A stretch of DNA of 20,000 bases from an uncultured virus (IMG/VR IMGVR_UViG_3300042522_001545) (taxonomy: Duplodnaviria > Heunggongvirae > Uroviricota > Caudoviricetes), in IMG/VR virus record IMGVR_UViG_3300042522_001545, positions 57,362-77,361 of that record; one strand, 5' to 3'. This document shows positions 1,668 to 18,612 of the stretch, piece by piece. How positions within the stretch are numbered: the stretch's first letter is position 1; each line of letters starts with the position of its first letter. The position numbers and the translations under genes were made by a program. A model generated the notes under the pieces. It ran no database searches and was not told the origin of the DNA. It saw only the letters and a list, made by a program, of their open reading frames with translations.

Positions 1668-3143
1668 ATGATTTTATGTGATCCTTCCGCAGAAAGAGCG
1701 GTACTGAGCGGTATATTGAAGTATGGTGAAGATGCCTACTTGGATATTTGTGATATAATCCAAGAAGGCGCATTTACTATTGACAGCAATCAAATAATTT
1801 ATAAATGCATTAAGAATATCTGTGATAAAAATCCTCAGACTAAACTAGATCTAGCATCTATCTACTCGTCTGCCCAAGAGTTGGGACTATCAGACGTTTT
1901 ATCCAAAAAAGAGGAAGCGCAGCACTTAAAAGCTATATTCGATTTTCCAGTTAATCTAGAAAACGTTAGGAAGTTTGCTGCCAAAATCAAGAAGCTAGAA
2001 ATAGCCAGATTACTACATAAAGAACTAGAGAATGCTCAGGAACAACTATTAGATGTTACTGGGTCAGAGAATATATCTTCTATTATAGGTATAGCAGAAG
2101 AGTCTATCTTTAATTTCTCTTCTTCTTTGTCAACTGACGGTGATTCTTCTCCATCTTCTATAGGCAAAGACATTGATGATTATATTAAGTTTTTGCAAGA
2201 ACATAAAGTAGATCAAATTGGTATATCTACAGGATTTCCAGTTTATGACCAGTCTATTGGAGGGGGTTTGCGTCGTGGAACAGTTAATGTAATAGCGGCC
2301 AGACCAAAGGTGGGCAAGACATTACTATCAGACAATATGGGTTATTATATTGCTAGTAAGTTAAAAATACCAGTATTGAATATGGATACTGAAATGACTA
2401 GGGAAGACCACGTTCATCGTATTCTTGCTATGTCATCAGAACTAGAAATATCCAAAATAGAAACTGGTAAGTTTGCAGATACTCCAGGATCTATGTCTAA
2501 AATGCAAGCAGCTGTAGCTGAATTAAAAGCCAGTAGACTGTATCATCATAGTATTGCTGGCAAATCATTCGAAGAACAATTAGCATTAATGAGGAGGTGG
2601 ATAGTTAAAGAGGTTGGACTTAATGATGACGGCACAGCTAAAGAGTGCGTAATTTTTTATGACTATCTAAAGCTCATGGACTCTGCCGGTATCTCTCAAG
2701 ACATGAAAGAATATCAGGTTCTTGGCTTCATGATGACATCATTACATAACTTTGCCGTTAAATATAAGGTACCAATAGTAGCCTTTATACAATTAAACAG
2801 AGACGGTATTTCCAAGGAAAGTACAGATACCGCTAGCGGATCAGACAGAATCATTTGGCTCTGTAGCAATTTCACTATCTTTAAAAGAAAGTCAGATGAG
2901 GAGATTGCTGAAGATGGTCCAGATAATGGGAATCGTAAGTTAGTGCCATTAATTAGTCGTCACGGAGGAGGATTAGACGATAATGATTATATTAATTGTC
3001 ACATGAAGGGTTGGTGTGCCAAAATAGTAGAAGGTAAAACTCGTTTAGAATTAGTTAACAACGTTCAGACCAAAAAAGATGGATTTATAGTTAGTAACAA
3101 TGAATATAATGAAGAAGAAGCAGAAGAAATACCATTCGTATGA
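1668..3143 (+). CDS. dnaB: Replicative DnaB-family (SF4) DNA helicase
   Basis: N-terminal AERAVLSGIL; GISTGF..DQSIGGGL; Walker A AARPKVGKT; catalytic Glu in MDTEM; Walker B FYDYL; QLNR motif. Confidence 0.95.
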   Translation: MILCDPSAERAVLSGILKYGEDAYLDICDIIQEGAFTIDSNQIIYKCIKNICDKNPQTKLDLASIYSSAQELGLSDVLSKKEEAQHLKAIFDFPVNLENVRKFAAKIKKLEIARLLHKELENAQEQLLDVTGSENISSIIGIAEESIFNFSSSLSTDGDSSPSSIGKDIDDYIKFLQEHKVDQIGISTGFPVYDQSIGGGLRRGTVNVIAARPKVGKTLLSDNMGYYIASKLKIPVLNMDTEMTREDHVHRILAMSSELEISKIETGKFADTPGSMSKMQAAVAELKASRLYHHSIAGKSFEEQLALMRRWIVKEVGLNDDGTAKECVIFYDYLKLMDSAGISQDMKEYQVLGFMMTSLHNFAVKYKVPIVAFIQLNRDGISKESTDTASGSDRIIWLCSNFTIFKRKSDEEIAEDGPDNGNRKLVPLISRHGGGLDDNDYINCHMKGWCAKIVEGKTRLELVNNVQTKKDGFIVSNNEYNEEEAEEIPFV

Positions 3144-4269
3144 TCAGCATCAATTAAAGCATCTATCTGATGTGGTCTGTGATGATATAGAGAATTTACT
3201 CAGTCATCTCGGAATAACATCTTATAGAATGCTTGATAAAATGGTTATCATGAGTTGTCCAATCCACGGAGGAGATAACGACTCCGCGTTTAATCTGTAT
3301 CATCAAGGAGACTCTTATAGAGGTAACTGGAAATGCAGAACCCATCAATGTGAAGAAATTTTTAAGTCGTCTATTATTGGGTTTATTAGAGGTTGTTTGT
3401 CTCATGAAAAGGGATGGTCTAAATCAGGAGATCCAGTAGTATCTTTTGGTGAAGCTCTGGAGTTTGCTATTGATTTTAGTAAGTCTGATTTGGCCAATAT
3501 CAAGGTCTCAAAAAGAGCCAAAGAAAAATCTACTTTTATAAATGCCATAAAAAATATTCAATCAAATGATAGGCCAATAAATCTTGGTACTGTTCCCAGA
3601 TCATCTGTGGTTAAAGCTCTGTCTATTCCATCTCAATACTTTTTAAATAGGGGCTTCAGTGAGGACGTATTGCGCAAATATGACGTTGGAGACTGCTTAG
3701 ATCCTAACAAGGAAATGTGTGACAGGGCGGTGGTTCCTGTTTATGATGATAGTGGTCAAAATATGACAGGTTGTACTGGACGAACCTTCTATAATAAATG
3801 TATCAAATGTGGAGGATTCCATAAAACCGAATCAGATTGCCCATCTGACAATGAGGTATGGAAGTACTGTAAATGGAGACATAATAAAAACTTTAAAACA
3901 CAAGAGTATTTGTATAATTATTGGTTCGCTAAAGAGCATATCTCGTCTTCTCATACTGTGATTCTGGTAGAAAGTCCTGGAAATGTATGGAGACTAGAAG
4001 AAGCAGGAATACATAATTCTGTGGCAATCTTTGGAGCATCATTAAGTCACAAGCAAAAGATGTTATTAGATATTTCTGGAGCCATGAACATAGTAACAAT
4101 TATGGATAATGATAAGGCTGGCGAGGCTGCTGCTAAGAATATAGAAGAAAAATGTTGTAGAACATATAACATTAAACACATTAAGTTAACAGCAAACGAT
4201 ATTGCAGAAATGTCTACAAAAGATATTCATGAATATATTTTACCACAACTACAAGGATACTCTATATGA
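3100..4269 (+). CDS. dnaG: DnaG-type primase (CHC2 Zn finger + TOPRIM)
   Basis: CPIH...WKCRTHQC zinc-binding domain; YFLNRGF; RAVVPVYD..G...GR; LYNY; TOPRIM ILVESPGN...GA...MDNDKAG; ND. Start may be 3100 or 3109. Confidence 0.92.
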   Translation: MNIMKKKQKKYHSYDQHQLKHLSDVVCDDIENLLSHLGITSYRMLDKMVIMSCPIHGGDNDSAFNLYHQGDSYRGNWKCRTHQCEEIFKSSIIGFIRGCLSHEKGWSKSGDPVVSFGEALEFAIDFSKSDLANIKVSKRAKEKSTFINAIKNIQSNDRPINLGTVPRSSVVKALSIPSQYFLNRGFSEDVLRKYDVGDCLDPNKEMCDRAVVPVYDDSGQNMTGCTGRTFYNKCIKCGGFHKTESDCPSDNEVWKYCKWRHNKNFKTQEYLYNYWFAKEHISSSHTVILVESPGNVWRLEEAGIHNSVAIFGASLSHKQKMLLDISGAMNIVTIMDNDKAGEAAAKNIEEKCCRTYNIKHIKLTANDIAEMSTKDIHEYILPQLQGYSI

Positions 4270-4997
4270 TAGTGCTAGGTATATCTGGACGAAAACAATC
4301 CGGCAAAACAACAGCTGGTAACTTTATATTATCTCTGCATCTGTCTAAACTAGGCTTGGCAGAAAAGGTATTACTAGACGACGAAGGACAGATACTACTT
4401 TCTGATTTTGGCGGAAATAAAGAGTACGAAGGATTATTTCAACCACACATAATACCAAAGACAGATATTAATGCCCAAAGCTTATTGCAAAAACTATATA
4501 GTAAAATCAAAATATATAACTTTGCAGATGTTTTAAAACAAGACATTTGCATGAATATTCTAGGATTGGAATATAATCAATGTTATGGTAGTGATGATGA
4601 AAAAAATCAAACCACACATTTGCAATGGGAAAACAAGCAGCTGTCTGGCAGAGATGCTATGCAAATTATAGGAACGGACATATTTCGTAAATTAGATCCT
4701 GACGTTTGGGTAAAAGCAACCATCTCTAAAATAGTCAGAGAAAAACCAGATATTGCTATAATTACAGACTGTCGTTTTCCTAACGAGGTTGAGTCAATTC
4801 AAAATATTGGTGGCAAAGTATTAAGACTAACTAGAAATCCACATAATTCTGATCATCTTAGCGAATCCATATTAGATAAAGATAAATTTGACTGGTCTAA
4901 ATTTGATTACGTTATAGATAATGTTAATTCGTCAATATATGATCAGGTGTCTCAAATTAAAACATTACTAGAAAACCTCTTAGGACTCACTACATGA
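4266..4997 (+). CDS. Deoxynucleoside monophosphate kinase (phage dNMP kinase)
   Basis: P-loop GISGRKQSGKTT; FADVLK; RDAMQIIGTDIFR...WVK; ITDCRFPNE; H.SE motifs of the T4 gp1/T5-type dNMP kinases. Confidence 0.88.
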   Translation: MIVLGISGRKQSGKTTAGNFILSLHLSKLGLAEKVLLDDEGQILLSDFGGNKEYEGLFQPHIIPKTDINAQSLLQKLYSKIKIYNFADVLKQDICMNILGLEYNQCYGSDDEKNQTTHLQWENKQLSGRDAMQIIGTDIFRKLDPDVWVKATISKIVREKPDIAIITDCRFPNEVESIQNIGGKVLRLTRNPHNSDHLSESILDKDKFDWSKFDYVIDNVNSSIYDQVSQIKTLLENLLGLTT

Positions 4998-6034
4998 TAA
5001 TAACATACTTTAGAAGTTCTTCTTACAATACTCATAGTCTCTGTGAACAGCAATATTTTGCTGAATATGTACTAGGGTGGCGGGGTCCGTCTGGTCAAAA
5101 GGCAGATAAAGGAACAATAACTCATAAAGTTCTAGAAATTTTAGCAGTTATTAAAAAGGCACAACAAGACAATCTAGACACTGTAGAAGACGATGTCTTT
5201 GGTTTAATAAATGTACATAGCTATAATCTGGATGAAATTATTGATAAAGTCTACGATTATTATACTCAACAAACACAGCACCATAAATGGTCTCCCAAAG
5301 ACTTAAAAGATTGTCGGGCTTGGGTATATAAAGCAATCGAGTTTAACAATGGGATGTTTGATCCTAGAAATAGAAATGTTCTATGTCCAGAACAACACTT
5401 TGACTTTGAGATATCTAAACCATGGGCTAAATATTCGTATGATGTAGAAGATAAGAAGATTACTGGTAATTTAGCTCTTAAGGGACCTATTGACCTAATA
5501 ACTCTGGTTAATGATACCACCATAGAAATTATAGACTGGAAAACTGGTAGGAGACTTGACTGGGCTACAGGAGAAGAAAAGACTCAAGAAAAATTGGAAA
5601 GAGATCCTCAATTAAGAATATATCATTATGCTATTAAGCATTTATATCCTAAGATTAACCATATAATGTTCTCTATTTATTTTATTAATGATGGAGGTCC
5701 ATTTACTATATGTTTTAATGATTCTGACTTAGCAGAAACAGAGAACATGCTGAGGGCTAAGTACGAACTTATTAAAAATACTAAAAAACCCAGATTACAT
5801 AAAAGCTGGATGTGTAACAAATTATGTCATTTTGGCAAAACAACTTTTGACAATACTAATGTCACTCCTATAACAGAATATAGAGACGGTCAAACATGCT
5901 CTGTTGGCCAAACCATGACAAAGTGTGAACAGGTAAAACATGATCTTGATCTTTACGGAATCGACACTACAATGAACTTGTACAAGCACCCGAAACACTC
6001 TATTGGATTATACAAGGCCCCAGGAACAGTATGA
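4994..6034 (+). CDS. PD-(D/E)XK exonuclease, RecB/AddB/Cas4-like, probable Fe-S cysteines
   Basis: S.SS...C..QY; GTITHKVLE; E; GPIDL; IIDWKTG; QLRIY; C-terminal C-x3-C plus two further Cys. Confidence 0.85.
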   Translation: MIITYFRSSSYNTHSLCEQQYFAEYVLGWRGPSGQKADKGTITHKVLEILAVIKKAQQDNLDTVEDDVFGLINVHSYNLDEIIDKVYDYYTQQTQHHKWSPKDLKDCRAWVYKAIEFNNGMFDPRNRNVLCPEQHFDFEISKPWAKYSYDVEDKKITGNLALKGPIDLITLVNDTTIEIIDWKTGRRLDWATGEEKTQEKLERDPQLRIYHYAIKHLYPKINHIMFSIYFINDGGPFTICFNDSDLAETENMLRAKYELIKNTKKPRLHKSWMCNKLCHFGKTTFDNTNVTPITEYRDGQTCSVGQTMTKCEQVKHDLDLYGIDTTMNLYKHPKHSIGLYKAPGTV

Positions 6035-7899
6035 CTAAAACTTATGCCGCATTGCATACACACTCTCACTACAGCCTATTGGACGGTATCAGCAAGCCTC
6101 ATCAGATTGCTCAAAGATGTGCTAACACTGGGATTAAATCGTGTGCATTAACTGATCATGGTTCTATTTCTGGATGTGTTCAATTTTTCCAAGCTCTTAA
6201 AGCTCAAAATATAAAGCCAATACTAGGTTGTGAACTTTATATTTCCCATGAAGATTCTAACATCAAAACTAAAGAAAATAGCAAGCTTAGTCATTTTTTA
6301 GTATTGGCGAAGAATTTAAAGGGGTGGCGTAATTTAATCTCAATAGCTTCCGAAACCAATAAAGAAGAAAATTTTTATCATAAGCCAAGAATTAGTATGG
6401 ACAGACTAGCTAATTTTTTGGATGGGAATATTATAGGGTTCTGTGGTCATTTGGGATCTCTCTTGCCAGATCTATTAGAAAACCAGTCTGGAACAATGGA
6501 TAAGATAGGTATAGATTTTGTAGCTAAAATGAAAGAAATATTTGGTCAAGAGAACTTCTTTTTAGAAGCACAGCTTATGGACCAAGCACTCAATCCTGCA
6601 CAAAGAGACATAACAGATTTTGTTCGTTCTTTGGGCAGTAAAACAAAAACAAAAGTAATATGCACACCAGATGCTCATTATTGCACAAAAGAAGACGCCA
6701 TAGACCAAAGAATTCTACTATGTAACAATCTGAAGACTACTTTAGTAGATGTGAATAAAAAGCTATTAGCTAATCAAGATGTTCCATTGAGTTGTTTTTT
6801 TCAGTCAGATAATTATCACATACTATCTCCAGAAGAGATGAGTGATATTCATACAGAAGAAGAGATCGAAAACACTTTGTATGTAGACTCGCTATGTGAA
6901 GAATACAATATATTGAGCAAGCCATCCCTTCCAACGTTTGAATGTCCCAATAATGCTGATCCAGACGAATATCTTAGACAACTTTGTCGAGATGGCTGGA
7001 GAGAAAAGATTGCTGATAAAGTTCCAGAGTCTGAACACGAAACCTATGTTAATCGTATCAAGTTTGAATTAAAAGTTCTACAAGGTGCTGGATTATCTAG
7101 TTATTTTTTAATTATTCAAGATATTGTCAATTATGTTAAGTCCAATGGATGGCTACCAGGACCGGGTAGAGGTAGTGCTGCTGGATGTTTGGTATCATAT
7201 CTTGTCGGTATTACAGATATTAATCCTATTAAGTATGATTTGTTGTTTGAGAGATTTTATAACGAAGGAAGAAATACTGCAGATCATATATCCATGCCAG
7301 ATATTGATGTGGACGTACCAATTACCAAAAGACAATATGTCATAGACTATATTAAAGATAAATATGGAATAGAAAAAGTATCTCAAATGATAACTTTTAA
7401 TACTATGAAAGGTAGAGGAGCTTTAAAGGAAGTTTTAAGAGTTTATGGTAATATATCCTTTGATGAAATGAACAGAATTACTAAAAGTATTCCTGACGAA
7501 GCAAAAATTGCAGACGAATTGCAAGAAATGAAAGAAGATACTGGAGAAGCTTCTATCATACGTTGGGCTTTAGAAAATAATGTTGACAAACTCAAGGAAT
7601 GGTGCTATATATCTAATGACAACGTTCTGGAGGGACCACTGGCCAAAAGATTTGAGCAAGCAATCAGGCTGGAAGGAACCAAGTCAAATCAATCTAAACA
7701 TGCTGCTGGTGTAGTTATTAGTAGCAAAAAACTTAGTTCTGTATGTCCAATGGTATATGACACAAAGAATAAACAGGCCATAGCCGGTATGGAAATGCAG
7801 GATTTAGAAAGTCTTGGTTTAATTAAATTTGATATTCTGGGCGTTGCTATGTTGGATAAAATTATGACAATATCAGACATATTAAAATATGGAGAATAA
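6031..7899 (+). CDS. dnaE: DNA polymerase III alpha (DnaE), N-terminal piece: PHP + palm/thumb
   Basis: LHTHSHYSLLDG, TDHG, GCE, KPRI, DAHY (PHP); GPGRGSAAG, LLFERF, MPDIDVD, KHAAGVVI, GLIKFDILG. Ends about 16 aa after KFDILG at TAA 7897-7899. Confidence 0.95.
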   Translation: MTKTYAALHTHSHYSLLDGISKPHQIAQRCANTGIKSCALTDHGSISGCVQFFQALKAQNIKPILGCELYISHEDSNIKTKENSKLSHFLVLAKNLKGWRNLISIASETNKEENFYHKPRISMDRLANFLDGNIIGFCGHLGSLLPDLLENQSGTMDKIGIDFVAKMKEIFGQENFFLEAQLMDQALNPAQRDITDFVRSLGSKTKTKVICTPDAHYCTKEDAIDQRILLCNNLKTTLVDVNKKLLANQDVPLSCFFQSDNYHILSPEEMSDIHTEEEIENTLYVDSLCEEYNILSKPSLPTFECPNNADPDEYLRQLCRDGWREKIADKVPESEHETYVNRIKFELKVLQGAGLSSYFLIIQDIVNYVKSNGWLPGPGRGSAAGCLVSYLVGITDINPIKYDLLFERFYNEGRNTADHISMPDIDVDVPITKRQYVIDYIKDKYGIEKVSQMITFNTMKGRGALKEVLRVYGNISFDEMNRITKSIPDEAKIADELQEMKEDTGEASIIRWALENNVDKLKEWCYISNDNVLEGPLAKRFEQAIRLEGTKSNQSKHAAGVVISSKKLSSVCPMVYDTKNKQAIAGMEMQDLESLGLIKFDILGVAMLDKIMTISDILKYGE

Positions 7900-7901
7900 T
7901 C

Positions 7902-8081
7902 ATGGAAAAGAAATTTGAAGAATTAGTGCTCGGTGATAAATTCACTGTTAACAATGTTGAATACGTTAAGACAGAAGAAGTCAGAGTTAGTTGTTGCAGA
8001 TCTATCAACTGTCAAGTAGCAGCTGATAATAACCAGAAGGCATTTTTCCCAGGTTCAACAGTAGTAGTGGTAAATGGCTAA
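7902..8081 (+). CDS. Small 59-aa hypothetical protein (absent from the ORF track)
   Basis: ATG 7902 to TAA 8079-8081: MEKKFEELVLGDKFTVNNVEYVKTEEVRVSCCRSINCQVAADNNQKAFFPGSTVVVVNG. GGAG Shine-Dalgarno at 7891-7894; fills the gap exactly and overlaps the exonuclease start by 8 nt. Confidence 0.8.
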   Translation: MEKKFEELVLGDKFTVNNVEYVKTEEVRVSCCRSINCQVAADNNQKAFFPGSTVVVVNG

Positions 8082-8772
8082 TTTACAAAAAATTTGCGTA
8101 TTTGATCTTGAAACCGACGGGATTAATCCCGACACATGTAGTCCTGTTCAGATTGCTGCTATAATGATCGATCCATATCGACTAGAAGTTATACCAGATT
8201 CTGAATTTAATATTACGATAAAGCCAGAAGCTTTAGAAAATAATATTGATTATGCTTATGGAGATTCTGATGTTCTAGACTTTCATGCGAAAGTTAGGTC
8301 TAGTACTAAAGATGCTATTTTAGCTGACTGGAAGTCCTATCAAAAGCAAGAAAATGGATGGCAATTATTTGTATCATATCTGAATATGTATCATTCACGA
8401 TCAAGCGGTAAAAAATCATGTTTTACTGCTCCGATTGCTGCTGGGTATAATATCAACAGATTTGATTTACGAATAATGGAGAGGCTTAGTAAAAAATATG
8501 ACAATCTTAATAAAGAGGGTCGTTCAGATCTTTTTTATCCAAGAGATGTTATAGATTTGATGAATTTGGTTTTTTATTGGTTTGAAGGAAATAATGAACT
8601 TAAAAACTATACACTAGATAACCTTAGAGACTATCTAGGAATTAGTAAAGAGGGCGCTCACGATGCTCTTAAAGACGTTAAGGATACGGCAGATATTTTA
8701 ATTCGTTTTCTTAGACTACATCGTAATATTTCGAATAAAGTAAAATTTAAATCAGCATTTACCGTTGGATAA
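8074..8772 (+). CDS. DEDDh 3'-5' exonuclease (DnaQ/epsilon-like)
   Basis: ExoI VFDLETDG, ExoII GYNINRFD, ExoIII AHDALKD. Confidence 0.92.
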   Translation: MANLQKICVFDLETDGINPDTCSPVQIAAIMIDPYRLEVIPDSEFNITIKPEALENNIDYAYGDSDVLDFHAKVRSSTKDAILADWKSYQKQENGWQLFVSYLNMYHSRSSGKKSCFTAPIAAGYNINRFDLRIMERLSKKYDNLNKEGRSDLFYPRDVIDLMNLVFYWFEGNNELKNYTLDNLRDYLGISKEGAHDALKDVKDTADILIRFLRLHRNISNKVKFKSAFTVG

Positions 8773-8774
8773 AT

Positions 8775-10400
8775 ATGTCAGACTCTTTTGTATTTGATTG
8801 TGGATGTAAATTTGAAGTATTAGATAAGGGTGGAGAATTTCCTAAAATAAAATTTTCTCCCAAACTATCTAACATTAGTTTAGAATGCTATAAAACATGG
8901 GAACTGATATCCGAAGGCAATACTAAAGGATGTTTTCAGCTAGAGTCCAGATTAGGACAAACCATGGCCCGGAAATTAAAGCCTCAAAATATTGAGCAGC
9001 TATCTGGCTTGATCAGTATTCTTAGGCCGGGTTGTCTTGAGGCACATAGAGATGGTAAAAGCGTAAGCAATCATTATATAGATAAAAAGAATGGCTTAGA
9101 GTCTATTGACTATTTCCATCCAGCACTAGAGCCAATCTTAAAACATACCTATTCTGAAATGATTTACCAAGAACAGGCTATGTCTATAGCTAAAGAGCTA
9201 GCGGGTTTCAATTTACAAGAAGCAGACGATCTAAGAAAAGCCATTGGTAAAAAGCAAGCAGATAAAATGGCAAAAGTCCGTAAGAAGTTTATAGAAGGAT
9301 CTAAGCAGACTGGGAAACTATCAGAACCAGAAGCAGAACAAATATTCGAATGGATTGAAAAATCACAAAGATACTTATTTAATGCTAGTCATTCCATAAG
9401 CTATGCAATGAATGCTTATTTATCAGCGTATGCTAAAGCACATTTCCCCAAGATCTTTTTTGCATCATATCTCAGGTTCGCTAAGGACAAAATAGATCCT
9501 CAACAGGAAATAAAAGAGTTGGTTAGAAATGCTATGGAGATGGATATAGAAGTCCATATTCCTGACTTTAGAAATTTAAATGAGCTTTTCATATTGAAAA
9601 ATCAAAAGATATACTTTGGCTTAACAGACATAAAGGGGGTAGGACAGTCTGTATACAAGAAAATATTAGAACTAACAAAGAACACGAATGTTAATGATAT
9701 AACGTGGCCACAAATGGTCGGCAATATTCTGATGAATATAAACTCTGTTGCAGCCAAGGCTTTGATTAGTAGCGGCGCATTTGACTACTATAAGAAAAAT
9801 AGATCAGAGATGCTCTTCGAATATGAAATATGTTCTGGATTAACCAAAAAAGAGCAAACGGTATTTAATATTTACTCAAAGACCATGATAGATAGTACTA
9901 TAATAGACATTCTCAGTGCTTTATATACTGAAACTAAACTAATCAGAGGACGAAAAGAAACAATAGCGAACTATATAAGATCATTAGGACATCCGCCTTA
10001 CTCCTTAATTGATAAAATAGAATGGTTATCAGATCAAGAAAATGATTTACTAGGGGTTGGTATCACATGCTCTAAACTTGATGTTTATGATATTACTATG
10101 GCCAATTGTAATTGTAAAACATTCAAGACATCATTGCTAAAAGAAAACATAGTTTTAGTAGGAGAGATTGGGAATGTTAATGTTACTAAAACTAAGAGCG
10201 GTAAGAATCCGGGTCTAGAGATGGCTTTTGTTACCATAGAGGATCAATACGGAACTTTGGATTCTGTGGTCTTTTTTCCTGAACAGTTTTCCCAGTATAG
10301 ATCTTATTTATTTATAGGTAATATTTTAGTCTTTTCAGGAAATAAAAGCAAAAGCAAGGACGGTCTGATCGTAGAAAAGTGTTTTGAGCCTATAACTTGA
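8775..10400 (+). CDS. dnaE: DNA polymerase III alpha (DnaE), C-terminal piece: fingers + HhH + OB fold
   Basis: TKGCFQLES, LRPG, YQEQAM..A...AGF....AD.LRKAIGKK, YLFNASHSISYA, KAHFP..F, GLTDIKGVG, LISSGAFD, MAFVTIED..G..DSVVF. Confidence 0.95.
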   Translation: MSDSFVFDCGCKFEVLDKGGEFPKIKFSPKLSNISLECYKTWELISEGNTKGCFQLESRLGQTMARKLKPQNIEQLSGLISILRPGCLEAHRDGKSVSNHYIDKKNGLESIDYFHPALEPILKHTYSEMIYQEQAMSIAKELAGFNLQEADDLRKAIGKKQADKMAKVRKKFIEGSKQTGKLSEPEAEQIFEWIEKSQRYLFNASHSISYAMNAYLSAYAKAHFPKIFFASYLRFAKDKIDPQQEIKELVRNAMEMDIEVHIPDFRNLNELFILKNQKIYFGLTDIKGVGQSVYKKILELTKNTNVNDITWPQMVGNILMNINSVAAKALISSGAFDYYKKNRSEMLFEYEICSGLTKKEQTVFNIYSKTMIDSTIIDILSALYTETKLIRGRKETIANYIRSLGHPPYSLIDKIEWLSDQENDLLGVGITCSKLDVYDITMANCNCKTFKTSLLKENIVLVGEIGNVNVTKTKSGKNPGLEMAFVTIEDQYGTLDSVVFFPEQFSQYRSYLFIGNILVFSGNKSKSKDGLIVEKCFEPIT

Positions 10401-10424
10401 CAATCAACGGCTCATTGCTATAAT
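10397..10424 (+). promoter_or_regulatory. Consensus sigma70-type promoter for ssb
   Basis: TTGACA (10397-10402), 16-nt spacer, TATAAT (10419-10424) preceded by extended -10 TG (10416-10417). The -35 overlaps the dnaE-C stop codon TGA. Confidence 0.85.
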
Positions 10425-10467
10425 GTAGTAGTTGCGTGATTTCTTTTTTACAAGGAGTTTGATATAT

Positions 10468-10839
10468 ATGAATATTACATTGCTTAGAGGTAATCTTGCT
10501 CGTGATCCAGAATTAAGGATTGTTAATACTGGTGGCAAGCAAACATCTGTTGTTAATTTTACAGTAGCTGTATCTCGTGAATATACGAAGGCTAGTGGCG
10601 ACAAAGACAAGATTACTTCTTTCATTAATTGTGAAGCTTGGGATAGTGGTGCCGAGATGATTGCTGAGTCATTCAAGAAGGGTGATTTGGTTATGGTCGA
10701 GGGATCTTTAAGGAACGATACCTGGGAAAAGGACGGAGTTAAGCACAGTAGTCTTAAGGTTAGAGTAAATAACTTTTCTAAGATCACTCGCTTAACAAAG
10801 AACAGCAAGCAGGACTCATCCGAACCTGTAGCGTTTTAA
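10468..10839 (+). CDS. ssb: Single-stranded DNA-binding protein
   Basis: MNITLLRGNLARDPELR...F.VAV.R...FINCEAW...AE...KKGDLVMVEGSLR...W. AAGGAG SD at 10452-10457 supports ATG 10468 over TTG 10432. Confidence 0.95.
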   Translation: MNITLLRGNLARDPELRIVNTGGKQTSVVNFTVAVSREYTKASGDKDKITSFINCEAWDSGAEMIAESFKKGDLVMVEGSLRNDTWEKDGVKHSSLKVRVNNFSKITRLTKNSKQDSSEPVAF

Positions 10840-10866
10840 TCTTATGAGAATGTAAGGAAACAATAA

Positions 10867-10904
10867 ACGGGGGTCTGTGATGAGCAGGCCCCTGTCTATT
10901 TTTT
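10867..10904 (+). terminator. Rho-independent terminator downstream of ssb
   Basis: Stem ACGGGGGTCTG (10867-10877) pairs with CAGGCCCCTGT (10885-10895) using two G-U pairs, 7-nt loop, then CTATTTTTT. Confidence 0.75.
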
Positions 10905-12572
10905 ATGACAAAAAACAATAAATTAAAAATCTTGATGTGCTCTGAAGCCAGTTTTATTCATTCTGGTTTCGGTATATATGCAAAAGAACTACTAACTCGT
11001 TTACACAAAACCAATAAGTATGAAATAGCAGAATTCGCTTCTTATGGTTTTGTTAATGATCCGAGGGATGTATCTATTCACTGGAAATACTACGCCAATG
11101 CTGTTAAAGATTCAGACCATAGACATAAAGAATATTCGTCCAGAGTAGACAATCAGTTTGGACGCTGGCGTTTTGAAAAGGTTTTATTGGACTTTAAACC
11201 AGATATCGTTATTGATGTTCGTGATTATTGGATGAGTGCTTACCAAGGATCCTCTCCTCTTAGAAAATTTTTCCATTGGATATTAATGCCAACAGTAGAT
11301 TCTTCACCACAGCAAGAAGAATGGATAGATACCTTCTTAGACGCAGATGCAGTCTTTACATACTCTGATTGGGGTGCGGAAGTTCTTAAAGAGCAATCAT
11401 CTAACAAGATTAATTATATAGATACTACTTCCCCTGGCGTGGATATTAATACCTTTAAGATAAAAAACAGAAGCGATATTAAACAACAGCTTGGACTATC
11501 TCCTGATTCTATCATAATAGGATCAGTTATGCGTAACCAAAAACGCAAACTAATACCAGAATTATTTACCACTTTCAGAGAAGTCCTAGATAGATTAGAA
11601 GCCTCTAATAGTTCTTTGGGAGAGAATCTATATCTATATCTTCATACTAGCTATCCTGATATGGGTTGGGATATTCCTGAACTACTAAGACAGTCAAGAG
11701 TTAGTAATAGGGTTCTATTCACCTATATATGTAAAAACTGTAAGACAACCCAGTGCTCTGTATTTACTGGCCCACAAAAGGTTTGTGTAAAATGTATGAG
11801 CAAAAGCATGACCTTTCCATCTGTAACAGAAGGTGTATCTTCTGACACTCTGAGTAGCATATACAACATATTTGATCTTTATGTTCAGTACTCAATCTGT
11901 GAGGGATTTGGTATGCCGCAGGTGGAGGCTGGGGCTTGTGGTGTGCCGATAGCTACCGTGGATTATAGTGCTATGTGTGATATAGTTAAAAAATTAAAAG
12001 CCTACCCAATCAAGATACAAACTCTATTTAAAGAACTAGAAACAAAAGCTTTACGGGTTTATCCAGATAATAATGATTTAGCTAATTATATAATTGATTT
12101 TATCAATAAGCCAAAACCAACCAGAGAAAAATTAAGACATGAAATTCAAGATCTGACACATCAGCACTATAATTGGGATAATATTGCTCAAAAATGGGAA
12201 AAGTATTTTGACGAATTAGATGCAAAGGGATATAGGTCTAAATGGAATACTGGAAAATATGAGACACCAGTAATCAAAGAGTCAAATATTGATCCTCAGA
12301 CCCATTTTGATAGACTTATTGGAATATGCAATAATAATTTCCAAGAAACAGAACTCATAGGATCATACAAAATGTTAGAACTGCTTAAAAATGCAGACTA
12401 TGGATTTGTACAATCTAGTGCTACATCAATGGCTCCTTTTGATTTTAATAATACTCTTGACTATATTAATACTATGATAGATAATAATAATCAAGCAGAA
12501 AATGTTAAGAATAATAATGTTAAATTTGATGAAGATTTTATCACATACGCACACCTGAAAAACGTAACCTAA
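10905..12572 (+). CDS. GT-B (GT4-like) glycosyltransferase with inserted Cys4 zinc ribbon
   Basis: N-terminal KILMCSE..F..SGFG.Y; PGVD...F; RNQKRK; YNIFDLYVQYSICEGFGMPQVEAGACGVP (E-x7-E); YNWDNIAQKW; insertion CKNC...CVKC. Confidence 0.9.
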   Translation: MTKNNKLKILMCSEASFIHSGFGIYAKELLTRLHKTNKYEIAEFASYGFVNDPRDVSIHWKYYANAVKDSDHRHKEYSSRVDNQFGRWRFEKVLLDFKPDIVIDVRDYWMSAYQGSSPLRKFFHWILMPTVDSSPQQEEWIDTFLDADAVFTYSDWGAEVLKEQSSNKINYIDTTSPGVDINTFKIKNRSDIKQQLGLSPDSIIIGSVMRNQKRKLIPELFTTFREVLDRLEASNSSLGENLYLYLHTSYPDMGWDIPELLRQSRVSNRVLFTYICKNCKTTQCSVFTGPQKVCVKCMSKSMTFPSVTEGVSSDTLSSIYNIFDLYVQYSICEGFGMPQVEAGACGVPIATVDYSAMCDIVKKLKAYPIKIQTLFKELETKALRVYPDNNDLANYIIDFINKPKPTREKLRHEIQDLTHQHYNWDNIAQKWEKYFDELDAKGYRSKWNTGKYETPVIKESNIDPQTHFDRLIGICNNNFQETELIGSYKMLELLKNADYGFVQSSATSMAPFDFNNTLDYINTMIDNNNQAENVKNNNVKFDEDFITYAHLKNVT

Positions 12573-12574
12573 TA

Positions 12575-13576
12575 ATGAATAATACTCTATACATTGGACC
12601 ATATCGACAAAGAGATATTAATGGATTGTGGTCAACAGCATTAATACAAAACATGCTTAGCGACCGATCAAAAAATATATCACTAAGACCAATATTTCTT
12701 GATAGTAAATGTGCTATAAAGAATATAGACGAAGCTCTATGTCGTCAAGAAAATATACACTTATCAAAGATTGATACTGTTATTCAGCATGTTCCTTTGA
12801 ATAAGGCTTGTGTTATAGATTCGGTAGACAGAAACATATTAATACCAATTATAGATACGAACCTTGTACCAAAAGATGTTATAGATAAAGTCCTAAGGTT
12901 TGACGGAATATTAGTAGACAACAAGCCAGATGTTATCAGGTTTTCTCAAGCTTACCCCACATTGCAAAAACTAGTTAAGAACATAGATTATGTTTTTGAT
13001 GTTGATTCATCTTATAAAGCTGGATTTAATATAGGGCTACTAAACAATAGTGAAAAACTATACATGGTATGCAATTATAGAACAAATGTCAGAGTTATAT
13101 ATGATACTATAGTATCATTTATTGGAAATCTAAGATCTAAAGATATAGTATTGGTTTTGTTCACTCTGGATATATCCTCATCTGAAAAGGCTGAATTGGA
13201 GAAATTTATCAAAGAAACTTACAATAGTATGGACACAAAATACTCAATAAACAGAGTCATTATTGCTCCAATAACATCAGACTTAAATAACATATATGCA
13301 GCCCATAAGTCTGGAGATGTCTTTATTGATGCTGTTGACTATGGATCAAATAGTATTAATCTAAAAATAGCCAATAGCTTAAAGAAGAATATTATCAAGA
13401 TTGATCCTGACTATATCTTTAGTTTAACTGATGGGTCTAATAAAATTAATCAAGCTGGATCTTTAAAGATATCTTCTCAAACAATAAATAGCAGCATTAA
13501 AAAATATCTAGAAGTGAGACAGATACACAACACGGCCTCTTTGTTTAAAACAAATCACATTAATAAATATCTATAA
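12575..13576 (+). CDS. Divergent GT-B-like protein (possibly inactive)
   Basis: Rossmann-like start TLYIGPY, DTVIQHVP, and AAHKSGDVFIDA resembling the GT4 segment before E-x7-E, although that motif is absent. Confidence 0.45.
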   Translation: MNNTLYIGPYRQRDINGLWSTALIQNMLSDRSKNISLRPIFLDSKCAIKNIDEALCRQENIHLSKIDTVIQHVPLNKACVIDSVDRNILIPIIDTNLVPKDVIDKVLRFDGILVDNKPDVIRFSQAYPTLQKLVKNIDYVFDVDSSYKAGFNIGLLNNSEKLYMVCNYRTNVRVIYDTIVSFIGNLRSKDIVLVLFTLDISSSEKAELEKFIKETYNSMDTKYSINRVIIAPITSDLNNIYAAHKSGDVFIDAVDYGSNSINLKIANSLKKNIIKIDPDYIFSLTDGSNKINQAGSLKISSQTINSSIKKYLEVRQIHNTASLFKTNHINKYL

Positions 13577-13577
13577 A

Positions 13578-14456
13578 ATGAGTTATTCTAATCCTATATA
13601 CAATATAGCATATAAGTATGTTAATAAAAATACTAATATTCTGTATTCTCCAACAAATAATACTTTTGATTTACTAGCAGGGTTACTAGAAGTTAATCTA
13701 TATCAGACAAATAGTAGTTTACAAAACTATTATTATGACTTGTTTTGGAGCAATAATTTCTTGGAGCATACTCAGCAAACCAAAATGCTAGCTCATAATC
13801 AGCATTTAATAGATATGGTTTGGTTCCATAATGGTCCTCCGGTAAAGTTTAAAAAAGAAGACATTGCTTTAGTAAAAAACCAATTACATGATACAACAAA
13901 AATATTTTCTGATATTCAAACATTAAAAGCTTGGGGCTGTGATATTGATGAAAAGAATATAATAGTACCATATGGAATACCAGTATTCGAAGATCTTAAT
14001 AATATAAAGAAAACAGAATCTATTTTGATTATGAATGCAAATAATAGTCAAGAAATTAATAATTTATATCAGCATATTAAAAATGAATTCCCAACAGCAC
14101 AAATAATCAATGGATTGCAGCATATTGATTCAATCAATACACTATATAGTATTATGTCTAAATATAAAGTATGTATTGACATATACAATCCTATGAATGT
14201 TCTTATTTCCCAATATCTAGGATGTAAAACAATAACTTCCACAAGCCATAATCCAGAGATTAAAGGGATAACACTACTATTTGACTATAGTAATATTAAC
14301 ACAGTACTAAACTCTATTATTAATGATGAGCTTAGCAAAGAGGATATTTTACACAATCAATCATGGATACAATCCAATCATAGCTTTAATGCATTTTATA
14401 GCAGCGTCAACACACTATTACAAAAAATAAAACTTGAGGAGTTCTTTGTTTCATGA
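13578..14456 (+). CDS. Divergent glycosyltransferase-like protein
   Basis: IIVPYGIP, LYSIMSKYKVCID, LGCKTIT and HSFNAF echo GT-B C-terminal domain elements; position within the cluster. Confidence 0.45.
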   Translation: MSYSNPIYNIAYKYVNKNTNILYSPTNNTFDLLAGLLEVNLYQTNSSLQNYYYDLFWSNNFLEHTQQTKMLAHNQHLIDMVWFHNGPPVKFKKEDIALVKNQLHDTTKIFSDIQTLKAWGCDIDEKNIIVPYGIPVFEDLNNIKKTESILIMNANNSQEINNLYQHIKNEFPTAQIINGLQHIDSINTLYSIMSKYKVCIDIYNPMNVLISQYLGCKTITSTSHNPEIKGITLLFDYSNINTVLNSIINDELSKEDILHNQSWIQSNHSFNAFYSSVNTLLQKIKLEEFFVS

Positions 14457-14869
14457 GAAATTATCATATAGTTAGTATTTCAGAACCGGTATCTAATATT
14501 TCTGGATATCAAAAAATCTTAACAAATAACATAGAACAGATTATAAATCATTCTGCCGATAATATTTTGTGTTCATGTCTAGAGTACCAAGAAAAATCTA
14601 GCTTACAAACAATTATCAAACAGTCCCTATCCAAGATTAAGCCTCAAGGACAGATTACTATTAGTCTAACTAACTTTAAGAAATTATTTGAGGATTTTTT
14701 AAATTCTAAAATACCATCATCCCAAATCTTCGACTCATTAAGAGGCAAAAACAACATAGTAATTATCGAAGATATCTTAACAACATTAGATACAAACGTT
14801 TTTAAACTAATCAATATTAACTATGCTGAATATAATATTAGTATCAATATCGAAAGAGTAAGTATATAA
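14453..14869 (+). CDS. Small degenerate class I SAM-methyltransferase-like protein
   Basis: SADNILCSCLEY...LSKIKPQGQITISL resembles the S.D.I....LEH...LKPGG pattern; no glycine-rich motif I visible. Confidence 0.45.
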   Translation: MRNYHIVSISEPVSNISGYQKILTNNIEQIINHSADNILCSCLEYQEKSSLQTIIKQSLSKIKPQGQITISLTNFKKLFEDFLNSKIPSSQIFDSLRGKNNIVIIEDILTTLDTNVFKLININYAEYNISINIERVSI

Positions 14870-14873
14870 AACG

Positions 14874-15545
14874 ATGTTACATGTTTTGATTCTGGTTCCA
14901 GAAATAACAAAAGGGATGAAGTCATTAGGCTCAAAAGCCCTTTTAGATATTAAGAAGCACACAAAGGTACTAGAATATCAAATACACAATATTAAAAATC
15001 TTGATATAAAAACACAAATAACTGTTGCTACTGGATTTGAAGCCGAGAAAGTTCATTCTGTTCTAGACGAATTGAGTATAGAATATACTTTTAATCCAAC
15101 CTACAAAGAAACTAATCAAGGAGAATCCATAAGACTGTATTTAGAAAAATATTCTCCAAAACATCTTTTGATTATTAATAACGGGATATTGATGAAAAAA
15201 AATACCCTAAATAAACTACTGCTGTCTGGACATTCAAAGCTTTTTCTTCTTGACAAAGCCAAAGAAAACTTTAACTTAGGTTGTGCACTAACTCAGTCTG
15301 TTACAGAATATATTTTCTACGATTTGCCAGAACCTTGGGCAGAGTGTGTTTACTTGGATAAGGATGCTATTAATAATTTGTCGGTCATAGTTCAACAAAA
15401 TAAAACTAGTCAAATGTATTTGTTTGAGTTGCTTAATGAAATGCTATCGTCTAACACAATATTAAGCAAACACTACCTGAATAAAACCAAAATTATGAAA
15501 ATCAATACTATTAAGGATTTGCCAAAAGCTAAAGTATTTATATGA
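14874..15545 (+). CDS. Nucleotidyltransferase-fold (LicC/MobA/GlmU-like) protein, divergent
   Basis: GMKSLGSKALL....VLEYQI..I, VATGFEAEK, NPTYKETNQGESIRL and INTIKDL parallel the sugar/choline-phosphate NTP transferase pattern. Confidence 0.65.
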   Translation: MLHVLILVPEITKGMKSLGSKALLDIKKHTKVLEYQIHNIKNLDIKTQITVATGFEAEKVHSVLDELSIEYTFNPTYKETNQGESIRLYLEKYSPKHLLIINNGILMKKNTLNKLLLSGHSKLFLLDKAKENFNLGCALTQSVTEYIFYDLPEPWAECVYLDKDAINNLSVIVQQNKTSQMYLFELLNEMLSSNTILSKHYLNKTKIMKINTIKDLPKAKVFI

Positions 15546-16285
15546 GATCTATTCTTGTACAGCAAAGCTCGGAAAAGTTTGTTCAAAACTGTTCTGCTTT
15601 ATCTTTTGAAGATATTATGATAATAGATATATCAATAGGAAATAATCTATATCAAACATTCTTTAGACATAAGCCGGAATACTGCATATTCTCTGGCAGT
15701 CTAGTAAATAAAGAAATTTTACAATTCTGTGAGGACTATAGCGATAGTACCAACATTTATTTTTTTCATATTGACAATAAGTCATATGAGAATGTCAAGA
15801 CCTTACTGCCTCAAAAATGTAGAGTAGTCCATATTGGATATGATGATACTTATGATGTAGCTATTCCATTAGGGTTGGTTAATGATCAACTATTTTATAG
15901 CACTAGCACAAATGACAATAAAAAAGATGGTATAGTTTGTTTTATGGATGGATTAGCTTCTATTCCTAACGATCTACTTGATTTGCTATATCCAAATAGT
16001 TCCACGCCAATTAAGCTTTTCAACTGCCCTAGTATTAGGCACTACCAAAATCTTGGTATGTTAACAGAACAGAATAGAGCCAATCTATTGCAGACGCATA
16101 AGTATTATCTAGACTTAAAACAAGATGCTGGATTTAGCTATACCAATGAGGCAAAGTCTTGCGGGGCTATAGTTGTCTCCTTAGACCAAATTAAAGATAA
16201 TAGCTATACTTCTAGTCTACCAGAAAACACATATCATACTAATATTACGTATAACAAATTTTTAAGAGAGTTATTTAAACTATGA
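15542..16285 (+). CDS. Hypothetical protein, weakly glycosyltransferase-like
   Basis: ATGA-coupled to the upstream gene; NLGML....RANLL...YTNEAKSCGAIVV resembles the GT-B 'EA..CG..V' element. Confidence 0.45.
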   Translation: MRSILVQQSSEKFVQNCSALSFEDIMIIDISIGNNLYQTFFRHKPEYCIFSGSLVNKEILQFCEDYSDSTNIYFFHIDNKSYENVKTLLPQKCRVVHIGYDDTYDVAIPLGLVNDQLFYSTSTNDNKKDGIVCFMDGLASIPNDLLDLLYPNSSTPIKLFNCPSIRHYQNLGMLTEQNRANLLQTHKYYLDLKQDAGFSYTNEAKSCGAIVVSLDQIKDNSYTSSLPENTYHTNITYNKFLRELFKL

Positions 16286-16740
16286 ATGAAGATATAGGAT
16301 TTGTCTTAATAAAGCTTTTAAATAACAAGACTTATGACAGTATTCTAAATACTGTAGAACAATTTATTAAACGTCGCCCATACCAGCAACATGTAGTGTT
16401 CAATAGTTATTCGGAAAAAAGTAACACTTTTAATGTTCCAATTTTTCATCTTCAACAAGCACAGTTTTTTGATGGAAAACTAATACTATTTGATATGCCT
16501 AGTGTTATTCTGAGTAATCAATTCCCAAATATTAGCAAGCGTATACTATTTACATCTGATACCCATTGGACACAAACCAATACCGGAATGTATGAACAGT
16601 GGAGATCTATTTATGAGCAAGAGAATCTTGATATAATTGTAACCAGTCCAGTTCTAAACGACCTATATTCTATGTGTTGGAAACGCCCAATAGCCACAGT
16701 GGAGCAATTTACTTATGAAGAACTCTCAAAATATATATGA
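16282..16740 (+). CDS. Hypothetical protein (last gene of the GT-like cluster)
   Basis: 152-aa ORF, ATGA overlap with the upstream gene; alpha/beta pattern; no recognisable motif. Confidence 0.65.
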   Translation: MNEDIGFVLIKLLNNKTYDSILNTVEQFIKRRPYQQHVVFNSYSEKSNTFNVPIFHLQQAQFFDGKLILFDMPSVILSNQFPNISKRILFTSDTHWTQTNTGMYEQWRSIYEQENLDIIVTSPVLNDLYSMCWKRPIATVEQFTYEELSKYI

Positions 16741-17512
16741 CAATTTATCTGATAAAGAAAAAGAGAAGATTATCAGAACATGGTATGAAGAATTGAATAA
16801 AAGCTTTGCTGACATTGCTACAGCATGGTCAACTTATGCAAATAAGGTTAGAAGAGATGCTAAAAGATTTCAAATAACAATTCGCAATAAGTCAGACGCT
16901 CAAAAAAATGCTCTAAATACAGGAAAACACAAGCATCCCACAAAGGGTCAAGAGAGATCGTTAGAAATTAAAAATAAAATTGGTATGGGTGTTCTTAATT
17001 CATGGGAGTCATTGGATGCTTCTGAATTAGAATCTCGTAAAGCTAAAGCAAAAGCCAATTGGGAAAAATTAGACCATAATCAAAAAGAAAATATGCAACA
17101 AGCAGCTATTGTTGCTATAAGACAATCTAGTAAAGTTGGATCAAAATTAGAAAAATTCTTACTAAAGAACCTGCTATCTTCTGGTTTACATGTGGAGTTT
17201 CATAAGGAACAGTCTCTTGTTACCACCAAGTTGCAGATCGACCTGTTCCTGCCTAGTATTGGTACAGCTATTGAGGTTGACGGCCCTTCTCATTTTGAGC
17301 CAGTGTGGGGAGAGCAATCTCTGAGCAGAAATATAAAGTACGATAAAAAGAAAGAAGGACTAATCACTGGTAAGGGGTGGCATCTGATCAGAATCAAACA
17401 AACAAAAGATTTTTCAAATGCTAGAGGAACAATTATCTTAGAGAGATTATTACAAGCAATTAAATCTTGTGAGCAATCTAAAATACCATTAATTCTAACT
17501 ATAGAGGACTAA
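16715..17512 (+). CDS. Putative homing-type endonuclease: HTH + NUMOD3-like segment + Vsr/DUF559-like nuclease
   Basis: N-terminal Y...KSFADIA..W...ANKVRR (HTH-like); KGQERSLEIKNKIG (NUMOD3-like); C-terminal SKLEK...IDLFLP...AIEVDGPSH...D.KK......GWHLIRI. Confidence 0.7.
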   Translation: MKNSQNIYDNLSDKEKEKIIRTWYEELNKSFADIATAWSTYANKVRRDAKRFQITIRNKSDAQKNALNTGKHKHPTKGQERSLEIKNKIGMGVLNSWESLDASELESRKAKAKANWEKLDHNQKENMQQAAIVAIRQSSKVGSKLEKFLLKNLLSSGLHVEFHKEQSLVTTKLQIDLFLPSIGTAIEVDGPSHFEPVWGEQSLSRNIKYDKKKEGLITGKGWHLIRIKQTKDFSNARGTIILERLLQAIKSCEQSKIPLILTIED

Positions 17513-17515
17513 TTT

Positions 17516-18262: not shown

Positions 18263-18264
18263 TT

Positions 18265-18612
18265 ATGAAAGTAATATATAAAGCTAGTGATAAACTAACC
18301 TTTGAATTAGAAGGTTCTGGCCAAAAAGAAGTTTTTAAGGAACTAGCCGTAATTCAAGAAATTTTTGCAGAAGAAAAGTGTGGCTTGTGTTCTTCAACCA
18401 ATTTAAGATTTATCGTTAGAAACGTTGAAGGTAATGATTATTATGAACTTCGCTGTGCAGACTGTGGAGCAATTCTTGCTTTTGGTCAACACAAAAAGGG
18501 TGGAACATTATTTCCAAAGAGGAAAGATGATAACGGAACAATACTGCCTAACAAGGGTTGGCATAAATGGTCCAAAGATCAAGCAGAGGGCAAGGCGGGG
18601 AAGAAGAGTTAA
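18265..18612 (+). CDS. Hypothetical zinc-ribbon protein
   Basis: CGLC...CADC. ATG 18265 follows the upstream TAG (18260-18262) by 2 nt, so it is preferred over TTG 18253. Confidence 0.75.
   Translation: MKVIYKASDKLTFELEGSGQKEVFKELAVIQEIFAEEKCGLCSSTNLRFIVRNVEGNDYYELRCADCGAILAFGQHKKGGTLFPKRKDDNGTILPNKGWHKWSKDQAEGKAGKKS

Follow-up and report, generated by a model that had tools for sequence, protein, structure and literature searches.

An intein-free split of DNA polymerase III alpha with an exonuclease gene between its halves in an uncultured lake-water jumbo phage and its relatives

Results

Organization of the polymerase locus

The alpha subunit of DNA polymerase III (Pol III alpha, DnaE) is treated as a single chain, the one textbook exception being that of cyanobacteria, in which the two parts are rejoined by an intein. 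The stretch of DNA analysed here (the window, 20,000 nucleotides (nt), positions 57,362 to 77,361 of IMG/VR record IMGVR_UViG_3300042522_001545, a 77-kb fragment) is the replication module of an uncultured virus, and Pol III alpha is encoded in it as two open reading frames (ORFs), dnaE-N and dnaE-C, between which lie a mini-gene and a gene for a DEDDh 3'-5' exonuclease (Table 1). The virus is an uncultured lake-water jumbo phage; over the polymerase region, the window matches at 100% identity a contig of 243.8 kb that has direct terminal repeats. A preliminary description had reported the two ORFs of 622 and 541 amino acids (aa), and its coordinates proved exact when they were re-read from the sequence.

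The stop codon of dnaE-N is followed by 875 nt with two other genes before dnaE-C begins, so that DnaE is not one polypeptide here. At the first junction, 2 nt separate the dnaE-N stop from the ATG of the mini-gene, and a GGAG lies 8 nt 5' of that ATG; the mini-gene and the exonuclease gene overlap by 8 nt (ATGGCTAA, 8074-8081), and the exonuclease stop codon is followed, after 2 nt, by the dnaE-C ATG at 8775. These spacings agree with those of the preliminary description, as does the intactness of the exonuclease, whose catalytic residues are conserved (see below). In most of 80 related loci the first junction likewise has gaps of 1-3 nt or small overlaps, and its layout suggests translational coupling.

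Position of the break in DnaE

Pfam searches of the N piece returned PHP (PF02811, 6e-35, residues 8-181) and DNA_pol3_alpha (PF07733, 5e-75, residues 313-604), and those of the C piece DNA_pol3_finger (PF17657, 9e-44, residues 30-179) and HHH_6 (PF14579, 8e-10, residues 258-345). A match of the C piece to OB (PF01336, residues 469-531) scored 23.4 bits, under the cut-off of 27, and an AlphaFold2 (AF2) model of this piece, with a mean predicted local distance difference test score (pLDDT) of 82.6, has a beta barrel at residues 459-537. The parts that mark a protein as DnaE, namely the PHP domain, the three-Asp palm and the fingers/HhH/OB region, are thus all present across the two ORFs and are shared out between them as first described.

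The catalytic Asp residues lie in the N piece, D424 and D426 within PDIDVD (7300-7308) and D601 within KFD (7831-7833). All three are invariant in 40 relatives, over which the mean column identity of the N piece is 78%, and the fingers motif residues of the C piece are invariant in the relatives aligned. Among the PHP metal positions of the N piece (40 sequences), D18, H43, E68, H88, H140, D214 and H216 are invariant and H9 and H11 at least 90% conserved; to judge from these residues, the PHP domain (N piece residues 9-216, window 6031-6700) may be an active nuclease beside the separate DEDDh enzyme.

To locate the break, the pieces were aligned to solved single-chain enzymes and to protein family profiles. 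The N piece aligns with Taq Pol III alpha (2hpi, E 1e-79) over residues 7-626, residue 609 of the piece corresponding to Taq 626, and it is because this alignment reaches 626 that D601 can be identified as the third catalytic Asp: it pairs with the Asp of the Taq 'KMDFLG' motif (Taq D618), and the N piece ends 21 residues later. The alignment of the C piece begins with residue 34 at Taq 648 (E 9e-49) and with residue 32 at E. coli 587. Furthermore, PHROG 405 is continuous across the pieces (positions 41-613 in N, 622-1053 in C) and so is TIGR00594 (positions 2-572 in N, 581-1022 in C), with only 8-10 profile positions falling between them. As mapped on these alignments, the break is at the palm/fingers border, where the preliminary description had put it, and no part of DnaE is missing. 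The spacing from KFD to FQLES is about 74 residues here versus 42-50 in fused relatives, the surplus at the break being the first ~25 residues of the C piece, which are absent in the fused proteins P0051, P0108 and P0029. Since the catalytic Asp residues are on the N piece and the fingers on the C piece, the active site would be composite, with the Asp triad on one chain and the fingers on the other, as follows from this anatomy.

The break of the cyanobacterial enzyme had been said to lie at a different site. NCBIfam models of 876 and 449 positions, which we take to be the cyanobacterial DnaE halves, place that break at about residue 200 of the C piece, and to the extent that this assumed identity of the models holds, the profile mapping bears the statement out.

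Search for splicing elements

No Hint/intein family was detected by Pfam in either half (E ≤ 0.01), in keeping with the intein-free junctions that had been claimed. The scan is able to detect inteins, because it finds them in 9 of 13 longer relatives used as a positive control, including P0028, P0030, P0039, P0043 and P0073; in the 13 scanned, their insertion sites are near residue 65, near residue 381 and within the fingers, and never at this break. The N pieces P0030, P0039, P0043, P0073 and P0142 carry one or two inteins, at about residue 65 (PHP) or about 381 near GPGRGSAAG, some of them with LAGLIDADG domains, and still terminate at the usual break.

At the RNA level, no intron or RNA family was found in 5500-11000 (Rfam, E ≤ 1) apart from one chance match to a small nucleolar RNA (E 0.39). 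The gap is filled entirely by two conserved protein genes, the mini-gene and the DEDDh exonuclease gene, and searches with Pfam and PHROG revealed no homing endonuclease gene between the dnaE halves of the window. In a single relative (L076), a 231-aa ORF (7872-8567, + strand) is inserted at the junction of dnaE-N and the mini-gene and ends in an HNH-like motif, as judged by eye; this ORF suggests that homing endonucleases target dnaE junctions.

Distribution and phylogeny of split and fused forms

The 4,370-nt stretch from dnaE-N to dnaE-C was recovered in one contig and with 0 differences in 4 lake-water runs of 4 studies (2018, 2020, 2023 and 2024), which may include the source sample. An apparent joint from 8254 to 10310 (run X1) was set aside, as it consisted of 20-letter matches in an unrelated contig of 3.2 kb, in which 1,228 further letters separate them.

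A first scan of viral contigs gave 227 related stretches, of which 80 were kept (67-100% identity). In each of these 80 loci the genes for dNMP kinase, PD-(D/E)XK nuclease, N piece, mini-protein, exonuclease, C piece, SSB and glycosyltransferase follow in this order as far as the locus reaches, and all four ORFs are whole in 59 of them. Three further scans with alignments of distant N pieces each gave at least 571-594 related stretches; 304 loci among the matches listed were collapsed by identical N-gene ends into 184 groups, of which 114 have the order N / mini + exonuclease / C and 44 the order N / exonuclease / C, 1 is fused, 24 are ended by the contig edge and 1 is without an N end. Hence, the split with an exonuclease gene in the gap is found in 158 of the 159 groups that reach both halves, the fused form in 1 of 159, and the break is not unique to the contig in which it was first noticed. 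The order of the two halves is constant (158/158 split groups). The distance from N to C varies from 0.73 to 5.6 kb across loci and, being up to 5.6 kb in some relatives, makes the halves independent genes; insertions of 2.5-4.4 kb are seen between exonuclease and C in L130, L126, L142 and L148 and between mini-gene and exonuclease in L139 and L228. A blastn search of the window's locus gave no match in a set of GenBank phages that may lack records close to the window.

The same break is seen in proteins. When the N piece was searched against a library of 1.84 billion representatives, 121 of the best 150 matches had lengths of 540-700 aa; almost all of the 121 terminate 15-30 residues past KFD, and this holds down to 37% identity. 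An N piece of 762 aa (P0160) has an unexpected partner, a C-terminal fusion to a circularly permuted YpsA SLOG domain (PF12694, 1.6e-35). Full-length single chains among these 150 are P0035, P0062, P0108 and P0028, the last with an intein in the fingers, and P0029 and P0051 are contiguous across this break but terminate in the N part of an intein further on, so that they look like the 'fractured gene' type. For P0035, the closest fused relative, no counterpart was found in the viral contigs searched. The only fused dnaE among the viral loci listed (L098, 5262-9402) encodes 1142 aa and has an exonuclease gene directly upstream, overlapping its start.

A FastTree phylogeny was built from 124 N-piece sequences over 613 columns, with the DnaE of Streptomyces phage Faust as root; 30 of the 150 representatives were left out because of length or inteins. 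The seven fused forms make up two clades (support 0.996 and 1.0), each nested within a larger split clade, one of 24 members that includes the window (support 0.998) and one of 22 members (support 0.891). One old split with two later re-fusions would be the simplest reading of this tree, and, as the fused clades are nested among split ones, the one-piece and two-piece enzymes look interchangeable.

Selection and polymerase content

All four genes are under strong purifying selection. The median ratios of nonsynonymous to synonymous substitution rates (dN/dS), taken from 12 unsaturated pairs with dS of the N gene between 0.05 and 1.0, are 0.036 for dnaE-N, 0.074 for the mini-gene, 0.029 for the exonuclease gene and 0.053 for dnaE-C; an earlier run on near-saturated pairs had given higher and less reliable values. 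Relaxed selection, a possibility raised at the outset for either half, is therefore absent.

Three relatives are complete (243.8, 197.0 and 237.9 kb; CheckV 100%), one of them being 100% identical to the window. Each of the three has one DnaE palm, and no PolA or PolB match was found in them with Pfam. The two-piece DnaE is the sole DNA polymerase in these complete relatives.

The exonuclease, the mini-protein and the head of dnaE-C

The exonuclease matches Pfam RNase_T (PF00929, 3.7e-12) and PHROG 192, 'DNA polymerase exonuclease subunit' (2.4e-22), and among solved chains the one closest to it in sequence is 2p1j, a PolC-type exonuclease of T. maritima (E 6e-6). Its mean column identity is 78% across 41 sequences, in which each DEDDh position (D11/E13, D131, H196 and D201) is either invariant or conserved to at least 90%; the Exo I (DxE), Exo II (D) and Exo III (H-x4-D) motifs are complete. 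A conserved C-terminal tail, K[VI]KFK[GS][SA]F (residues 222-232, window 8737-8769), with K222, F225, K226 and F229, could serve to dock the protein onto the PHP domain or a clamp.

The mini-protein has 51 distinct orthologues, in which F14, C31, C32 and V55 are invariant and the motif R[VI]SCC[RK]S[IV]N recurs. Pfam, PHROG and NCBIfam gave no match for it, and the ESM Atlas only unnamed viral clusters. Its AF2 model is a five-strand all-beta barrel (pLDDT 95.1), predicted to be SH3-like/KOW/Tudor-like, and the fold matches are weak and generic within this range: the best by Foldseek is EF-P domain I (E 0.15) and the best by VIA the SH3-like domain of IdeR (Z 5.1, root-mean-square deviation 2.5, 51 residues aligned). 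Because these matches are generic, the function of the mini-protein is not readable from them.

The slot between the N and exonuclease genes is, as far as the ORFs can be compared, filled by lineage-specific small proteins. Besides the mini-protein, a second type is an acidic ORF of 80-100 aa (L291, L283, L219, L254, L197, L256 and L277) and a third an ORF of 73-87 aa with the motif 'GRY.EYK.LSIC.INDFY..YQVHS' (L180, L184, L181, L182, L166, L186, L176, L179, L170, L173 and L177), the latter accompanying a short C head without the Cys motif. These two types are unrelated to each other and to the mini-protein, and in L293, L150, L288, L296 and L162 the slot is empty.

In the head of dnaE-C, C9, G10, C11, F13, F27 and C38 are invariant (41 sequences), and AF2 models the head as a beta hairpin with a pLDDT of about 80. 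Of 157 non-redundant loci, 134 have both the CxC pair and C38, 14 have neither and 9 are discordant, counted, like the two figures that follow, with kinship ignored; CxC and C38 thus behave as a single unit, which may be a metal knuckle. Loci with C38 are the only ones in which the SCC mini-protein is found (113/113), and the Cys head also occurs in 30 loci that have no mini-protein. An obligatory zinc site shared between the CC of the mini-protein and the CxC of the head is weakened by these 30 loci, some of which have no room for an ORF (L293, L150 and L288). C87, which follows 'RPG', was considered as a fourth ligand and rejected, as it does not co-vary with the head and is present in 7 of the 14 head-less loci.

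A complex prediction with C residues 1-330, N residues 310-622, the exonuclease and, as partner, the mini-protein scored 0.00 against a mark of 0.32; as the scoring had been calibrated on single-chain pairs, this value speaks neither for nor against any binding by the mini-protein.

Neighboring genes

The genes around the split are all on the + strand (Table 1). The PD-(D/E)XK nuclease gene lies upstream of dnaE-N in 80 of the 80 close loci and is a conserved neighbor, outside the split itself, and the SSB gene follows dnaE-C in all close loci that extend that far. Further downstream, nine consecutive + strand ORFs (12575-18612) have no Pfam match, and the G+C content is only 27-30% at 13-16 kb of the window versus about 35% elsewhere.

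Table 1. Genes and other features of the replication module, with positions in the window
Feature	Position	Strand	Remarks
RecA C-terminal fragment		+	First in gene order, upstream of DnaB
DnaB helicase	1668-3143	+	
Toprim primase	3100-4269	+	
dNMP (deoxynucleoside monophosphate) kinase	4266-4997	+	
PD-(D/E)XK nuclease	4994-6034	+	Pfam PDDEXK_1 2.7e-16; overlaps dnaE-N start by 4 nt
dnaE-N	6031-7899	+	622 aa; PHP, palm and thumb of Pol III alpha
Junction 1	7891-7904	+	GGAG 7891-7894; dnaE-N stop TAA 7897-7899; mini-gene ATG 7902-7904
Mini-gene	7902-8081	+	59 aa
DEDDh 3'-5' exonuclease	8074-8772	+	232 aa; epsilon-like proofreader candidate
dnaE-C	8775-10400	+	541 aa; fingers, HhH and OB of Pol III alpha
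Head of dnaE-C, residues 1-38	8775-8888	+	Candidate docking tail or metal knuckle
SSB	10432-10839	+	Pfam SSB 1.4e-25
Glycosyltransferase	10905-12572	+	

Discussion

The locus most probably encodes a non-covalent two-piece Pol III alpha with co-translated partners, a reading to which we give a probability of about 0.8 and in which assembly is inferred from comparative evidence. The N piece, with PHP, palm, thumb and the three Asp residues, and the C piece, with the fingers, the HhH/clamp-binding region and the OB domain, would fold together unjoined, the C piece supplying the nucleotide- and DNA-binding parts. Co-transcription and translational coupling of the four genes are probable, as these are arranged in a head-to-tail row in which neighbors are 2 nt apart or overlap by 8 nt, and matched protein amounts would result. 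The DEDDh exonuclease is the likely proofreader of this core. Fused relatives lack both the short tail of the N piece and the head of ~25 residues, with its Cys, that begins the C piece. By analogy with the tails of the split NrdA of phage Aeh1, these two break-specific elements are the likely docking sites. The 59-aa SH3-like protein would be a clade-specific accessory, possibly an assembly or stabilizing factor. The preliminary description had proposed a multi-subunit replicase of this kind, held together non-covalently and perhaps including the mini-protein; comparison supports its two-piece reading, which withstood the refuting tests applied to it, whereas the mini-protein turned out not to be family-wide.

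Several points weigh against this interpretation. There is no match to the mini-protein profile in 44 of the 158 split groups, which have other small ORFs or none, and the mini-protein is therefore not essential to the two-piece design. Co-transcription is considered probable from gene spacing only. The tree was made with FastTree and Shimodaira-Hasegawa-like supports, its only outgroup is one fused sequence, and support is weak (0.28-0.66) at some intermediate nodes. As regards the sole polymerase, an enzyme that is novel or very divergent would escape the Pfam searches for PolA and PolB. Finally, none of the three complete relatives (G001, G002 and G003) has a match to the beta clamp (PF00712) or the clamp loader (PF13177). 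These genomes are clampless by these profiles, though the phage supplies its own helicase, primase, SSB and polymerase; clamp functions, on which processive synthesis would depend, would therefore have to come from the host or from proteins that the profiles miss, and in principle the host's polymerase might serve the phage as well.

The lack of a clamp match is also what an alternative would lead one to expect in which the halves no longer form a polymerase and have taken up separate jobs, the N piece as a PHP nuclease or in repair and the C piece in DNA or clamp binding, with host Pol III replicating the phage. The invariance of the PHP metal residues H43, E68, H88, H140, D214 and H216 would likewise allow the N piece to act alone. 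We nevertheless regard such a division of labour as improbable: the polymerase Asp residues and fingers motifs are invariant and dN/dS is as low as that of the exonuclease gene, the halves keep a constant order in every split group, the genes around them (DnaB, primase, SSB and dNMP kinase) make up a complete set for replication, and two re-fusions are sensible only if the halves work as one enzyme.

Much less probable still is a covalent joining of the halves by an unrecognized route, be it translational bypass, trans-splicing of RNA or a non-canonical element in the tails that resembles an intein. Other sites of this polymerase family often carry inteins, and the ~25 extra residues of the C piece have a conserved Cys, the usual intein nucleophile; however, the tails (21 residues after KFD in N, a head of ~25 in C) are too short when set against the 88-105 residues of the N part of known split inteins (PMC2677866), and neither half has a Hint match. 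Moreover, lineages with a short, Cys-less head are also split, the gap holds two conserved protein genes and not a ribozyme, and the distance between the halves varies from locus to locus. An artefact or recent pseudogene, through an assembly error or a frameshift in one contig, is refuted by the identical single-contig sequence in four runs of four studies, by a break common to 158 non-redundant groups and by purifying selection on both halves.

Within the two-piece interpretation, a more far-reaching proposal, which we consider rather doubtful, joins these observations. The break would be an old, modular and reversible replicase design in which the halves dock by tails, including a three-cysteine head maybe holding a metal, and the slot would house at least three unrelated kinds of lineage-specific assembly factors. 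The SCC protein may bind the Cys head, because it occurs only where this head exists, and would then complete a shared metal site.

Compared with single-chain DnaE (Taq 2hpi/3e0d, E. coli 5fku/2hnh and M. tuberculosis 5lew/7pu7), the domains, their order and the catalytic residues are the same, but here the enzyme is in two chains, the genes for an exonuclease and a small protein lie between its halves, and the break has additional residues. Contiguous DnaE proteins, of 1028-1096 aa, are likewise encoded by Geobacillus phage GBK1, Bacillus phage PK-1 and Streptomyces phage Faust. The arrangement resembles the E. coli Pol III core (alpha-epsilon-theta) in that a polymerase, a DEDDh proofreader and a small third protein occur, here encoded together; unlike in that core, alpha is in two chains and the mini-protein is predicted to be an all-beta barrel without a family match, whereas the theta subunit (HolE) is helical.

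Split enzymes have been described in several other settings. The fractured DnaE genes of metagenomes have split inteins with a homing endonuclease gene between the halves, and one intein-less, SbcD-like fractured case was reported with them (Dassa et al. 2009, PMC2677866). Neighboring halves with a gene between them and an origin in similar aquatic samples are common to those genes and to ours (PMC2677866). Unlike the cyanobacterial and fractured DnaE, the present enzyme has no intein, and where those fractured genes have a homing endonuclease gene, its gap encodes a small protein and a proofreader. In Aeromonas phages 25 and 44RR, the polymerase gp43 is split into 43A and 43B, and the pieces of phage 25 co-purify and are active (PMC2988022), while the NrdA-a and NrdA-b of phage Aeh1 assemble via essential tails (PMC3045599). 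As in these T4-related cases, an essential replication enzyme would here be in two polypeptides without splicing and with new tails at the break; their junctions are frequented by homing endonucleases, and an HNH-like ORF sits at a junction in L076. The differences from split gp43 are that the polymerase is of family C and not B, that the split is old and widespread and not limited to few phages, and that an exonuclease partner gene lies in the gap. Group 2.2 jumbo phages have a minimal Pol III alpha module split between distant genes, with PolB also present (Iyer et al. 2021, PMC7824862). The likeness is that of a Pol III alpha-type catalytic module in two jumbo-phage proteins predicted to reconstitute, but the group 2.2 enzyme is a minimal core that lacks PHP and the other domains, is divided within the nucleotidyltransferase module and occurs alongside a family B replicase (PMC7824862), whereas here a full-length DnaE is cut between palm and fingers into adjoining genes and is the sole polymerase. 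A search of the literature, subscription journals and supplements aside, brought up no account of a full-length DnaE that is split without an intein and has an exonuclease gene between its parts. Intein-free split phage enzymes are already known, and what is notable here is the polymerase family, the age and spread of the split, the presence of a partner gene between the halves, the apparent re-fusions and a slot whose small ORF differs between lineages.

If our interpretation is true, the palm/fingers junction would be a natural seam of C-family polymerases, used in a large group of aquatic phages, and the enzyme would be a widespread new case among the few essential enzymes that withstand the breaking up of their genes by growing docking tails. 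It would also provide a ready-made two-part polymerase for protein engineering and for studies of how fingers closing is coupled to catalysis, with the nested fused forms and the changing small ORFs as natural controls for experiments.

A split at the same palm/fingers place is present in a cultured phage of 52.8 kb, Rossellomorea phage phiT1 (L305, PV767480.1, 9714-12996), whose DnaE is annotated as two coding sequences (CDS) of 573 and 469 aa; its N piece ends 24 residues after KFD, and a 49-aa ORF lies between the halves. Our literature search found no paper on this phage. Unlike the window, phiT1 has no exonuclease gene in the gap, and its halves are 34% and 30% identical to those of the window, phiT1 being about equally distant (34-37% identity) from GBK1, PK-1, Faust and the window. 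The DnaE of Bacillus phage vB_BceM_WH1 (L307, LC597490.1, 194353-198551) is spread in its annotation over three CDS, gp235-237, between which about 700 and about 400 nt carry no annotation, a fragmentation of a different kind that is possibly due to introns.

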